Assembly: GCA_900617105.1 (NCBI GenBank)
Contig: UYFQ01000260.1
Span: 248,001-312,000 of the forward strand
DNA from: Hydrurus foetidus
Lineage: Eukaryota
Direction: 5' to 3'
DNA length: 64,000 nt
The notes below the pieces were generated by a model. That model saw only the letters and a program-made list of their open reading frames with translations, made no database searches and had not been told where the DNA came from. The position numbers and the translations under genes were made by a program. This document shows positions 21,333 to 52,309 of this stretch, in pieces (position 1 is the stretch's first letter; every line of letters starts with the position of its first letter).

Positions 21333-21450
21333 CCCGTCATCCCGGGACTTGTTCCCGGGACCCATTTGTCCCGCGGTACGGGCGATGAAGGGGTGTTCGA
21401 CGGCGGGCGGCTGAACCATGGGTCCCGGGAACAAGTCCCGGGATGACGGG
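21333..21450. repeat. CGTC-type REP inverted dimer
   Basis: Perfect 33-bp inverted repeat 21333-21365 / 21418-21450; each arm is itself a hairpin (TCCCGGGA-cttgt-TCCCGGGA) headed by CGTC. Confidence 0.9.
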
Positions 21451-21614
21451 CAGGGGGCTCTTCAGCAGTTCTCCATCGTTCTGCCGAGCTCTATCCCCGC
21501 GCTCCAACGGGGATAAGGGCCTTTCCGCCCCAACAACTTCAACGCCCTAACCCCGCGACCCAGCGTCACGATCCAAAATCGACGCAGCCCCCTCCAAAAC
21601 GCCCGCATACTTCT

Positions 21615-21956
21615 CCTCGCTTCATCGCAAGGGGAGGGCGTCCAGCTGGCGACCTGACGGGGGGTGGGGGCGGTTGTGCGGGTGCGAAGGCGGGTGTCGT
21701 AAACCCGCCTATCGGAGGAAGGCCAAGCCTCCGCCCGTCCGAAGGTTCGCTCCGGGTTCCTCCGGAATCGGCGTGGCTGCAGCCCAAGGCTGGGTCCGTC
21801 GCGAGGGGGATGAAATCCGGGTGGGGCATAAGGCTGAACAGGCCTGCGCGCCCCGGCCAGAGGGATAACGACCGCGCGGAGCGCTCCGGCCACGGCCGAA
21901 ACGGTACTCCACTAAACCCTCATCCGGGCCTGGCCCGGACGCTCCGCCGCCTCCCC
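21615..21956 (+). ncRNA. Candidate large structured ncRNA, copy 1 (family not recognised)
   Basis: Homologous to 49205-49611; closing stems, many hairpins, CATACT -10-like box at 21606-21611. Confidence 0.65.
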
Positions 21957-22002
21957 ACACTTGCCGCTCAAACCGGCGAGGCTGCGAACCTGTGTTCTGT
22001 AT

Positions 22003-48750: not shown

Positions 48751-49078
48751 TCAGCCGCCGGTCGAATCCACGATGATGGCCACGGTCTTGCTGCGCGACA
48801 GCGGGTCCCATCCGCCACGATGGCCGAGGCGATGGCCCCTGGCCACCAGTTCCAGGGCGACCTGAGAGGGCTTCAGCAGCGGCGCGCCATAGCGGGGCCG
48901 CGGGCCGGGCGGAAACTCGATCACGGCTTCGCGCTGACCTTCCTGTGGCGCACGGCGATCGCCATGCCATGCCGCTCGGGGCGTCGCTGGACCAGCCGGG
49001 CTGGCGATGAAGCCGCCACATGTAGGGGTCCCCCGCGACCTCGATTTCAAACTCAGGGCTTAGTTTTGTTCGCGCCAT
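48751..49078 (-). CDS. Small hypothetical protein, frameshifted
   Basis: MARTKLSPEFEIEV.. and EGQREAVIEFP..GWDPLSRSK pieces. Confidence 0.6.
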
Positions 49079-49204
49079 GCAAGCGTGTTAGCCCGTCACG
49101 CGCCCTCAGACCACCCCGACCCGCTTCGCCAGCCGCTATCGGCCCCCTGTGGCCAAGGCCAGGGCGCAAGCTCGCGACCTCGCGCGGGAAACCGCCGAGT
49201 GGGT

Positions 49205-49611
49205 GGGAAGGGCTGCGGAGCGCCCGGGCCTCGCCCGGATGTGAGTTTGTAGAAGTACCGTTTCGACGAAGACAGACGCTCCGCGCAGCCGTTATCCGGT
49301 GAGCCCTCGGGGCGCGGGGTTTTAACCCGCTTCCGACGTTAGGCCCCCGACGGGTGGAGGGGATAGCGACCCCGTCCAGACCGCATGGGCGATTTCAGCC
49401 CATGCCTGTTGCGACATCGCCGCTCGCATCCTCGGGTCGATGTCGGCGGCGAACGGTCAGGGTGGGCCAGGCCACCTTGGCGACGAGGGTCACCCCTTAA
49501 GACCGTTGGCCAGCCCACACCCGCTGACGCTGGCGGCGAGCGCTTCCCGCTCGACCACACCCCAGGGCCCGTCAGGTCGCCGGCCGACGCCCTTCCCCTG
49601 CCTTCAGGTGA
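49205..49611 (-). ncRNA. Candidate large structured ncRNA, copy 2 (family not recognised)
   Basis: Shares ordered blocks and stems with 21615-21956; CATAAT -10-like box at 49617-49622 on the minus strand. Confidence 0.65.
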
Positions 49612-49756
49612 GACTGATTATGCAGGCGGTTTCAGCGCGTCTGACAGGCGCGATCAACTAATTTGCAAGCCCTTGATCAGGCTGGGGTTTGTTTCGAAAA
49701 GAACGGGGATTGGGCGCAGTTTGTCCCCTTGCCCGGCCGGTCAGCGTCCGGTCGTC

Positions 49757-49960
49757 TCAGTGCAGCGTGGCCGACGCGCTCATCCAGGCGCCCATCGTGC
49801 GGGCCTGGCGGGTGGACTGCTCATCTTCCAGCGAGAGTTCCTCGAGCGAGATAGCCGCCAGCAGCCAGTCCTCGAGATCGGACTCAGAGGCGCCACCGTG
49901 CTCCAGGGCGTCCTTGAGCGCGTGGATCAGCCATTCGACGGCGTCATCGGTCTTGGTCAT
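49757..49960 (-). CDS. Small acidic hypothetical protein
   Basis: 67-aa helical acidic ORF ending ATLH. Confidence 0.55.
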   Translation of the reverse strand: MTKTDDAVEWLIHALKDALEHGGASESDLEDWLLAAISLEELSLEDEQSTRQARTMGAWMSASATLH

Positions 49961-50100: not shown

Positions 50101-52309
50101 TTACTGCCCCTTAAGCTTGCGGCCGAAGAACTCCAGGTGCGTCTTGAGCACGCTGAGGCCCTTGGTCTTGCTGCCGGGGGCGCTGTGGCGCTCGCCGGGA
50201 TAGAGGGCCATTTCGAAGGGGATGGCCTTTTTCTGCAGGGCCGCGATCAGGCGGGTGCTGTTTTCGAAGATGACATTGTCATCGGCCATGCCGTGCAGCA
50301 GCAGCAGGCTGCCGGGCTTCATCCTGTCCAGACGGGTGAGGATATCGGACCGCGCATAGCCGTCCTTGTTCTCCTCAGGCTTGCCCATGTAGCGCTCGGT
50401 ATAGGCGGTGTCGTAGAGGCCCCACTCGGTGGGCGGCGCGCCGCCGGCCCCGGCCTTGAAGGGGCTGTCGTCGGCGGTCAGCATCATCAGGGTCATGAAG
50501 CCGCCATACGACCAGCCGACCACGCCCAGCTTCTCGGCGTCCACATAGGGCAGGGTTTTCAGATAGTTGGCGCCGACCAGCTGATCGTCGACCTCCACGG
50601 TGCCCATGCGCCGATCCAGGGCTCGCGCGAACTTCGCCGAGCGGTTGGCGGTGCCACGGTTGTCGAGCCGGAAGACGAGGTAGCCGGCTTCGAGATAGGT
50701 GCGTTCCGACGGGCTCTGCCAGATCTTCCGGACATTCTGGGCGTACGCCAGCAGACGGCGACGATGGCGAGATACTTTTCGACGGGTCGAAATCGGCCGG
50801 CTTCAGCAGGGCGTAGTACAGGGTCTCGCCGTCGGCGGCCTTCAGGGTTCCGTAGTCCGGCGTGGTCAGGGTCGAGGCATAGGGCCAGTAAGGATGCCCC
50901 TCGGCCAGCCGGTTTTCCTCGATCCAGCGCACGCGCTTGCCGTCGGGCGCATAGAGCGCGGTCTGGGGCGGGGTCTTGGGATCGGTGTAGGTGCCGGCAA
51001 AGGCGCCGTTGGGCGCCACCTTGGCCGTCCACCAGCCGCCGGCCGGGGTCAGGGCCTTGGGCTTGCCGGGTTTGACGTAGGAGACCTCATAGAGGCGGCG
51101 CTCGATCGGCGTGTCGATGGAGGCGCCGAAGATCACCACCTTGCGGGCCTCATCGACGCCCTCGACCCGGTTCATCGGCCAGTCGCCCTTGGTGATCTGG
51201 GCGATCAGCTTGCCGTCGGCGGCGTGGCGATAGAGGTGGTTGAAGCCCGACTTCTCCGATGACCACAGGAAGGTGCCATCGCTGAGAGGGCGGAAGTCTT
51301 CGTGCACCTCGATGAAGTGGCGGTCGGTCTCGGTCAGGACCGTCTTGCCCTGACCCGTGGCCGGGTCGAAGGCGATGATGTCCAGGGTCTTTTGGTCGCG
51401 CGACAGGCGCTGGACATAGACGGTCTTGCCATTGGCCGACCAGTCGACGCGGGCGACATAGATGTCCTTGTTCGCGCCCAGATCCAGCTGCACGTCCTGG
51501 CCGGTGGCCAGGTTGCGCACAAACAGGTCGACCACGGCGTTGGGGCGGCCGGCGCGGGGATAGCGCTGCAGCACGACGGTGGCGCCGCCGGGGCCGATAT
51601 CGGCGCGGGGCACGATGTCGACGCCGCTCTCATCGACGCGGGCATAGGCGATGTGGCCTTCGCTGGGCGACCACCAGTAGCCGCTGAAACGGTCCAGCTC
51701 TTCCTGGGCGATGAACTCGGCGACGCCGAACGACAGGGCGTCCTTGCCCTCGGTGGTCAGGGCCTTTTCGGCCCCGCCGTTGACCGGCTTCAGATAGAGG
51801 TTCTGGTCGCGAACATACGAGACATAGCCGCCCAGCGGCGAGACCTTGGCGTCGACCTCGTCGCCCGGGGTTTCGGTCAGGCGGGAAACCTTGCCGTCGG
51901 AAACGCTGTCCAGATAGAGGTCGCCGTCCAGCGGCACCAGGATGAAGCGCCCCTGGCTGTCCCAGCTGTATTCGACGATGCCGCGCGACGAGACGCGGGC
52001 CCTTTCGCGGCGGGCCTTCTCGGCCTCAGACAGCTCCTTGGCGCCCGACGACAGGGTGGCCGAGTCGATCAGACGATAGGGCTCGCCGCCGGCCACATCG
52101 GCCGCCCACAGGTCCTGGACATTGGCGGCCTCGGCCTTGGCTTTCAGATAGGTGACGCGCTTGCCGTCCGGCGACAGGGCCACGCCCTTGGCGGCGGGAC
52201 CCGACAGGCTGGGATCAGCGAAGATGCGTTCGGGGGGCAGCTTTTCCGCCAGCACGGGCGAAGTCAGGGCGAGGCACGCCGCGAGGGCGGTAAGCGAGGG
52301 TCTGATCAT
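50101..52309 (-). CDS. Dipeptidyl peptidase IV (S9B), frameshifted
   Basis: AQEELDR, GWSYGG nucleophile motif, ADDNV, ERH. Confidence 0.93.

Follow-up and report, generated by a model that had tools for sequence, protein, structure and literature searches.

Dispersed bacterial repeats such as BIME/REP in enterobacteria, RIME in rhizobia, ERIC and CIR are (mostly) intergenic, occur in many copies and are restricted to particular lineages. They are built from mosaic modules, adjoined by REP-like palindromes, and gained or lost between close relatives. Large structured RNAs such as OLE, GOLLD, ROOL, raiA and HEARO are non-coding, hundreds of nucleotides long, and have many covarying helices and conserved junction and loop motifs; HEARO is also present in many copies per genome. 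T-box leaders and c-di-GMP riboswitches can number tens of copies with a conserved fold and possible alternative pairings. Here we describe an element that shares all of these features. It lies in a 64-kb stretch of DNA ("the window"; contig UYFQ01000260.1, positions 248,001 to 312,000, deposited under the name Hydrurus foetidus), at window positions 49164-49728 on the minus strand, and we call it copy 2; a diverged relative elsewhere in the window is copy 1. All coordinates below are window positions, and copy 2 is read on the minus strand.

The element differs from each of these described systems. Unlike the dispersed repeats, whose length it exceeds four- to fivefold, it carries a conserved -10-like hexamer (in 68 of 68 aligned copies), and has a covarying pseudoknotted fold with a long-range helix, an excess of G-U over A-C pairs, and unpaired motifs that are conserved across genera. 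Unlike the large structured RNAs, it has no Rfam match, is found in genomes without TnpB (0 of 5), and occurs as about 47 promoter-bearing copies among housekeeping genes. Whereas T-box leaders and c-di-GMP riboswitches are understood always to precede co-oriented genes with a coherent function, this element faces a convergent gene in 19 of 42 copies. We propose, tentatively, that copy 2 is one of a multicopy family of free-standing structured RNA genes, which would act in trans rather than as the leader of a neighboring gene.

Size and range of the family

The preliminary description of this DNA had reported two copies of a candidate RNA. There are indeed two in the window. A blastn search of the window with the segment 49100-49700 matched copy 1 at 21863-21958 in its 3' part (79.6% identity over 98 nt, E = 6e-13) and at 21630-21682 in its 5' part (80% over 55 nt, E = 1.3e-4), and nothing else. 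Searches of the 64 kb with family profiles (E = 1e-26 to 1e-33) and with R1, a covariance model of the 5' domain (E = 4e-14 and 4e-13), match both places and no other; both copies were in the training sets of the profiles and of R1. The preliminary description had allowed that the alignment of the two copies might prove insignificant against dinucleotide-shuffled controls, and it did not. Copy 2 folds with -224.1 kcal/mol, compared to -196.9 +/- 7.1 for shuffled sequences (z = -3.84; none of 100 shuffles as good), and copy 1 is more stable than its shuffles only weakly (z = -2.01; 4 of 100 as good).

A count of two nevertheless understates the family, which has about 47 members in the nearest complete genome and extends to several genera. 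That genome, G001, is a single contig of 4,052,756 bases, and it contains at least 40 matches to the 3' part of the element and at least 35 to the 5' part. At 40 of 40 loci in our G001 locus set the 5' and 3' modules are both present and in order, spanning 379-447 nt end to end, and none of the 40 is truncated or decayed, although the subfamilies diverge by 25-30%. The G001 ortholog of copy 1 is locus L055. A motif pattern for the 3' domain occurs at 47 places in G001 and at 35, 16, 6 and 21 places in four congeners, as against 0-1 for the reversed pattern.

Within the genus, BLAST finds matches in 21 of 25 genomes, compared to none of 16 genomes from other families. Both modules are present at 28 of 30 loci examined in relatives, and the other two loci end at contig ends. 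Within Caulobacteraceae, the R1 model has matches in 27 of 121 genomes, representing 9 of 27 genera; many of its matches lie at contig ends. Across the order it matches 18 of 29 genomes in one family (f1), and 2 of 28 in another (f3, both in one genus); all 84 genomes sampled from the remaining four families lack a match. Copies in other genera have the same order of conserved blocks. Named database records with the motif pattern are, among the matches listed, mostly from Brevundimonas species and from Caulobacter species, C. vibrioides DSM 9893, C. henricii and C. endophyticus among the latter; the pattern has 18 specified bases, for which scattered single matches in unrelated records are expected by chance.

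A predicted conserved, pseudoknotted fold

The conserved unit at copy 2 is about 560 bases long and consists, in order, of an upstream hairpin, a promoter-like region, and a predicted RNA of ~450 nt (Table 1). It had been placed at 49170..49645. The core features lie where they had been put, and the unit is larger on both sides, running from the hairpin at 49728-49705 to about 49164. The CATAAT box is at 49622-49617. The 9-bp closing stem pairs GGGGAAGGGC (49597-49589) with GCCCUUCCC (49213-49205), and the 8-bp inner stem pairs GCGGAGCG (49284-49277) with CGCUCCGC (49222-49215), both as originally drawn. The hairpin CAUGGGC/UGAAAUC/GCCCAUG (49404-49384) is likewise in place, with an extra outer G-C pair (49405-49383). 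The distances between closing-stem ends, 393 nt in copy 2 (49597-49205) and 326 nt in copy 1 (21631-21956), also stand.

Helices were identified by an unbiased scan of column pairs, and named structures were then counted in A2, an alignment of 68 copies from 20 genomes of the genus, using as controls shuffles and partners slid by 1-3 columns. Because the copies are related, counts against shuffles are not probabilities; the slid controls are fairer, though reading the structure from the same sequences favors it. Over 50 pairs (3350 cells), 85.6-85.8% of cells are paired compared to 39-52% in slid controls, and the covariation score of 0.27-0.28 (0.07-0.13 when slid) was reached by none of 500 shuffles. 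The 5' domain taken separately has 83.6% of its cells paired, against 38-56% in controls. This level of compensatory change above controls is what is expected of a structured non-coding RNA gene.

Individual helices follow the same pattern. In the closing stem 89.5% of cells are paired and five of eight pairs show changes on both sides; for the hairpin with the GCGACC loop the values are 94.3% and three of four pairs. The preliminary description had suggested that the 5' leader could pair with the segment after the GCGACC block, crossing the closing stem as a pseudoknot, and this holds across the family, with 87.9% of cells paired and both-side changes in 7 of 11 pairs. In copy 2 itself the leader pairing is imperfect: 49610-49600 pairs with 49568-49556 at 8 of 11 positions, with three mismatches. 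DNA runs of close strains have C for G at leader base 49605, restoring one pair, and one extra base at 49589.

The unbiased scan also brought out the long-range helix GUGGUCG/CGGCUGC, in which 96.0% of cells are paired and four of seven pairs changed on both sides. Three bases are common to the end of the pseudoknot strand and the start of this helix, and both pairings track a U-to-C change there; at the shared column the long-range helix is better supported (67 of 68 copies paired) than the pseudoknot (61 of 68). The outer stem of the 3' domain is paired in 99.6% of cells, with swaps of GC to AU and of AU to GC, its inner hairpin in 96.6%, and the 3' hairpin in 73-77%, with compensatory changes. 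The middle domain is a mosaic in which modules are shared in varying combinations among copies. RNAalifold, applied to the 33 copies that have the 3' middle module of copy 2, predicts 29 pairs in it, comprising four more helices with 8 compensatory pairs and including the CAUGGGC hairpin.

Among the helix cells, G-U or U-G combinations number 250 and A-C or C-A combinations 85. This excess points to selection on the RNA of this strand, and not on a DNA palindrome. Four motifs in unpaired positions, GCGACC, AGCGGG, GGAUAA and CGAAACGGUA, are kept across genera.

Two further ideas about the fold were dropped. A Shine-Dalgarno/anti-Shine-Dalgarno mimic (in the segment GGGGUGAUC and the leader CACCUC, compared to the rRNA sequence) failed at the copy 1 subfamily, which has GGCGGUUG at that place, and base pairs between the 3' tail and the inside of the 3' domain showed no covariation at fixed columns.

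Table 1. Parts of copy 2, in 5' to 3' order, and of copy 1.
Feature	Window position	Strand	Partner or basis
Copy 2: upstream hairpin, GGGGA...UCCCC	49705..49728	-	Aligned across 42 copies; left edge of conservation against unrelated flanks
Copy 2: U-rich run after upstream hairpin	49695-49704	-	U-rich in main subfamily
Copy 2: promoter-like region, CTTGCAAATTAGTTGATCGCGCC..TCAGACGCGC.GAAACCGCC	49613..49694	-	Ends in -10-like CATAAT, 49617-49622
Copy 2: 5' leader CACCUGAAGGC, 5' strand of pseudoknot	49600..49610	-	Pairs with 49556-49568
Copy 2: closing stem, 5' strand GGGAAGGG	49590..49597	-	Pairs with 49205-49212
Copy 2: hairpin CGUC / GGCCGGCGACCU / GACG, conserved loop motif GCGACC	49570..49589	-	Family pair counts
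Copy 2: pseudoknot, 3' strand GCCCUGGGGUGUG	49556..49568	-	Last three bases shared with long-range helix
Copy 2: long-range helix, 5' strand GUGGUCG, then invariant AGCGGG	49552..49558	-	Pairs with 49285-49291; encloses variable middle
Copy 2: variable mosaic middle domain	49292..49551	-	Includes covarying hairpin 49383-49405; three more helices near 3' side
Copy 2: long-range helix, 3' strand CGGCUGC, conserved GGAUAA before it	49285..49291	-	Column-pair scan, pair counts
Copy 2: 3' domain, outer stem GCGGAGCG/CGCUCCGC, conserved unpaired CGAAACGGUA	49215..49284	-	49277-49284 with 49215-49222
Copy 2: 3' domain, inner hairpin UCCGGGC/GCCCGGG	49233-49239 with 49223-49229	-	Pair counts
Copy 2: closing stem, 3' strand CCCUUCCC	49205..49212	-	Pair counts
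Copy 2: 3' hairpin CUCGGCGG/uuuc/CCGC-G-CGAG (49179-49199) and conserved tail	49164..49199	-	Right edge of conservation; copies diverge beyond
Copy 1: whole, different subfamily, shorter middle	21492..21995	+	blastn, family profiles, R1
Copy 1: upstream hairpin	21492-21516	+	
Copy 1: -10-like CATACT	21606-21611	+	
Copy 1: closing stem	21631-21637	+	Pairs with 21950-21956

Promoter-like region and coding capacity

The -10-like hexamer is located 5-6 nt ahead of the leader helix. Its A2 and T6 are present in 68 of 68 copies and its T3 in 65, while positions 1, 4 and 5 vary (CATAAT in 31 copies, TATTCT in 13, CATACT in 12, TATCCT in 5 and others in 7). Conservation of A2, T3 and T6 is the pattern expected for a working -10 element. 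Further upstream, 13 nt before GCATAATC, is the motif CAGACGC, which we take to resemble the Caulobacter housekeeping promoter consensus. Judging from these positions, the unit likely carries a promoter of its own.

The unit has no conserved open reading frame (ORF), with no start column common to more than 19 of the 68 copies on either strand. Two RNA sequencing runs filed under the species label placed 0 reads out of 10.5 million each, and are no test of transcription.

Genomic context

At the copy 2 locus, where all the genes are on the minus strand, a DPP-IV/S9 peptidase gene and then a 67-aa ORF come before the element; after it come a small ORF and the genes for an acyl-CoA thioesterase and an amidase. 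To describe the context more generally we used a flank alignment of 42 copies; the gene calls around them are crude (filtered on G+C content at third codon positions) and the functions of neighbors were read from N-termini. Twenty-one copies are tandem and co-directional with their neighbors, eight are tandem and antisense, seven are in convergent regions, one is in a divergent region, and five are unclassed. The downstream gene is co-oriented with the element in 23 of the 42 and convergent in the other 19. Neighbors are unrelated to each other and include histidinol dehydrogenase-like, PurD-like and RecF-like proteins, kinases and lipoproteins, among others.

These results bear out the earlier suggestion that the element is not a gene-specific riboswitch. 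The homologs do not sit, co-oriented, upstream of a single functional class of gene; many of them face a convergent gene, and the unrelated housekeeping genes beside them rule out a gene-specific leader.

A more general role in cis can be imagined, in which the element is an intergenic cassette whose upstream hairpin ends transcription from upstream and whose promoter restarts it, the RNA being a stabilizing or regulatory leader, or a barrier, for its neighbors. The upstream hairpin and the U-rich run that follows it in the main subfamily possibly form a terminator for transcription from upstream. Co-directional copies outnumber opposed ones at tandem loci, 21 to 8 by our crude gene calls, and no terminator follows the RNA, which makes read-through possible into the downstream gene, including the small ORF at 49078. 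The two possible partners of the last three bases of the pseudoknot strand would suit a switch. We nevertheless consider such a cassette improbable. Almost half of the copies face a convergent downstream gene and eight are antisense to both neighbors, the downstream genes have no common theme, and relatives that lack the element retain the downstream gene with its own upstream sequence. A fold of 450 nt with conserved unpaired motifs also far exceeds what a barrier or terminator needs.

Two genes near copy 2 are interrupted in the window. The small ORF that follows it (48751-49078, minus strand) corresponds in G001 and G164 to a 109-aa protein without a Pfam family; in the window it is frameshifted, tblastn aligning it in two pieces, and close strains have indels at 48811, 48836, 48943 and 48977. 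The DPP-IV/S9 peptidase gene (50101-52309, minus strand) is split into overlapping frames of 644 aa and 168 aa, compared to a single frame of 737-779 aa in relatives. DNA runs of close strains have 1-2-base insertions at 50746-50775 in the peptidase gene, which indicates that the window sequence either has a frameshift there or was assembled wrongly.

Gain and loss of copies

Comparison of orthologous loci shows that the presence of the element differs between relatives. At the copy 2 locus it is present in the window genome and in G001, G164, G003, G014 and G004, and absent in G011, G172 and others; G011, without the element, also lacks the whole small ORF that follows. The two closest genomes (G136 and G164, in which the flanks are 94-96% identical) have no element at two further G001 loci, whereas three more distant genomes carry it there in identical position and orientation. 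At one of these loci a block comprising a REP-like unit, the element and a hairpin is flanked by direct repeats of the REP-like unit; at the other, the element is missing together with a gene for a 139-aa protein. At the empty sites we see complex indels and no clean excision with a duplicated target. Across the flank alignment, a REP-like unit adjoins some copies at fixed offsets, upstream in 6 of 42, inverted downstream in 8 of 42, and on both sides in 1 of 42.

The preliminary description had proposed that the element might be mobile. It does not appear to move by transposition. Like a MITE (miniature inverted-repeat transposable element) it is short, non-coding, multicopy and intergenic, and unlike a MITE, which would have both at every copy, it has no general terminal inverted repeats or target-site duplications. 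The TnpB domain PF07282, which an omega-RNA or HEARO of IscB-TnpB elements would call for, was found in none of five copy-bearing genomes (with 13 to 47 copies), while control genomes were positive, and there was no match to HEARO in Rfam; IscB was not searched for with a dedicated model. Reverse transcriptase (PF00078) is absent from G001, which has 47 copies, and from G161. An RNA copied by a retroelement is also a poor fit in that the repeated unit contains the untranscribed promoter region and the upstream hairpin as well. A search of 72,556 plasmid and 50,697 phage records found no copy. Recombination in repeat-rich intergenic DNA probably accounts for the gain and loss of copies, often along with a small neighboring gene, and we see no footprint of the kind that a transposase leaves. 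A patch of the 3' domain differs between the orthologs W2 and L031, and the G001 copy L047 nearly matches the W2 version, which would fit conversion between copies.

These observations bear on the idea that the element is a selfish, non-autonomous dispersed repeat, either a mosaic intergenic repeat or MITE-like, multiplied and moved at the DNA level by recombination at REP-like repeats or by a host enzyme. The promoter and fold would then be kept through multiplication of intact copies only, or because the RNA aids spread. We regard this as possible though rather unlikely. It would account for the range in copy number from 0 to 47 within one genus, the many matches at contig ends, the mosaic modules and near-identity of parts of copies within a genome (including the W2/L031 patch), the patchy presence at two G001 loci with one block between REP-like direct repeats, the REP-like unit abutting some copies at fixed offsets, and the avoidance of divergent promoter regions (1 of 37 classed loci). 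It does not account so well for the scarcity of terminal repeats in the counts above, for empty sites that are complex indels from which a small neighboring gene has also gone, or for the lack of TnpB, reverse transcriptase, and plasmid or phage copies in the searches described. Nor does it predict that none of 40 loci would be decayed or truncated, or that unpaired motifs would be conserved across genera.

Several other repeats were seen near copies. A palindromic REP-like pair is located immediately upstream of copy 1 (21335-21448; CGTCATCCCGGGAC...GTCCCGGGATGACG, with inner GTTCCCGGGAC arms). Similar short palindromes (CCCGCCACAAGGGCGGGAATGAC; GGCTGCG.AGCAGCCCGTAGGGGGCAAGT; TCTTCCCCC...GGGGGAAGA) are densely packed around many G001 copies. 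A second, unrelated repeat of ~200-300 nt, consisting of a long inverted repeat (CATCCTTAAATCTC...GAGATTTAAGGATG) and then a GC hairpin, lies 200-500 nt upstream of the element in about 14 of 40 G001 copies (L032-L035, L037, L043, L045-L049, L053, L060 and L070) and was not found in the window. G001 (L031) and G164 (L109) have an insert of ~900 nt between the element and the 67-aa ORF, bounded by perfect inverted repeats of 15 bp (CGCCAGACATCTGGT); the sequence inside the insert is not the same in G001 and G164, and the insert is missing from the window genome, where its site would be at ~49745. The same 398-aa protein, which by sequence resembles an integrase-type (DDE) insertion sequence transposase, is encoded beside three G001 copies (L038, L041 and L057).

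Comparison with cataloged RNAs and with CIR

At the gathering scores of Rfam 15 the window contains only RNase P; it is a bacterial class A RNase P RNA, at 1166-1560 on the plus strand, which matches at full length with 295 bits against a gathering score of 100. When E-values up to 10 were allowed for 48900-49900 the sole match was a chance microRNA, and when values up to 5 were allowed for six other copies from three genera there was no match inside the element. A two-piece tmRNA was suspected, and a tRNA/tmRNA search found none. We found no description of such an RNA in the literature listings that were searched. The main texts of four Caulobacter transcriptome and small RNA papers (PMC4117421, PMC4287350, PMC11724286 and PMC8144410) mention no such repeats, and the motif strings are absent from the part of their supplements that was searched (for PMC4287350, 12 of 20 files).

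One described repeat could be the same thing, namely the CcrM-associated intergenic repeat (CIR) of C. crescentus from 2003, in which case the element would be a DNA-level, methylation-tied repeat that has already been described. A passage of a review names CIR as a strictly intergenic C. crescentus repeat, citing Chen and Shapiro (2003). In our alignment GAATC is conserved in one middle module, shared by copy 1 and seven other copies. Against this, a conserved GANTC is found at one alignment column only, in those 8 of 42 copies, and 26 of the 42 have no GANTC at all. CIR is also reportedly present in up to 21 copies, as against 47 here. The family as a whole does not fit the definition reported for CIR, the two being set apart by description and not by comparison of consensus sequences, and we think their identity very improbable.

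Discussion

Autonomous RNA genes fit the data better than a decaying DNA repeat does, because positions in the hexamer are invariant, the fold covaries in a strand-specific manner, the unpaired motifs are shared across genera, and no truncated copy is seen among 40 loci.

Several observations weigh against free-standing RNA genes. R1 finds nothing in three complete genomes of the genus, nor BLAST in four, copy number ranges from 0 to 47, and the family is therefore dispensable. No partner protein is encoded beside the copies, and none is conserved in low-copy genomes either. A scan of 48900-49900 for E. coli-type two-hexamer (sigma-70) promoters found none, because the -35 region here is not TTGACA-like. 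A scan of the same interval for intrinsic terminators also found none, and no U-tract terminator follows the 3' hairpin. Metatranscriptome contigs (X1 and X3) cover only the conserved modules, at 49217-49413, with a word depth of 22-82 compared to 0-3 in the flanks, and this depth is no proof of transcription because a DNA repeat with 40 copies would look alike. Runs X18-X21, which hold the locus, have even depth over genes and element and thus behave like DNA. At two loci in the mosaic region, identity between orthologs is 94.8-94.9% in the RNA part, 96.5-97.2% in flanking intergenic DNA and 77-94% at third codon positions; this comparison gives no sign of extra constraint, and with two loci it says nothing firm. 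Finally, multiplication limited to intact 'master' copies could be another source of covariation between subfamilies. The wide variation in copy number, the absence of the family from some genomes of the genus, and the turnover of copies at sites rich in repeats continue to speak for a selfish repeat, and that explanation and RNA genes acting in trans are not mutually exclusive.

If the copies are RNA genes, the predicted transcription start of copy 2 is near 49610-49612, ~5-8 nt past the hexamer. A junction formed by the closing stem together with the leader pseudoknot and long-range helix would display GCGACC, AGCGGG, GGAUAA and CGAAACGGUA, and these unpaired motifs would bind a partner, most likely a protein, while the middle domain varies module by module. 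Copies would arise, vanish or be swapped by DNA recombination, between copies or between flanking REP-like repeats, and probably not by a transposase.

A bolder proposal, which we offer with considerable doubt, is that the family is a new class of large pseudoknotted RNA, with some 35-47 genes, each bearing a promoter, in a Caulobacter genome (C. vibrioides included) and fewer in Brevundimonas, that would have been overlooked because multi-mapping reads are usually discarded. The RNA would be the core of a trans-acting ribonucleoprotein or RNA assembly, its swappable middle would confer specificities particular to each copy, and the copies would serve as recombination points for small accessory genes.

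As a leading model for the cell biology of bacteria, Caulobacter has repeatedly had its transcriptome mapped. If the proposal is true, dozens of structured RNAs of ~450 nt outside Rfam would be a sizeable blind spot, probably due to the handling of multi-mapping reads. The closing stem, leader pseudoknot, long-range helix and unpaired motifs provide a concrete target for probing, pull-downs and structural work. Because copies come and go with small neighboring genes, the element may also mark, or drive, genome variation on a micro-scale in Caulobacteraceae.

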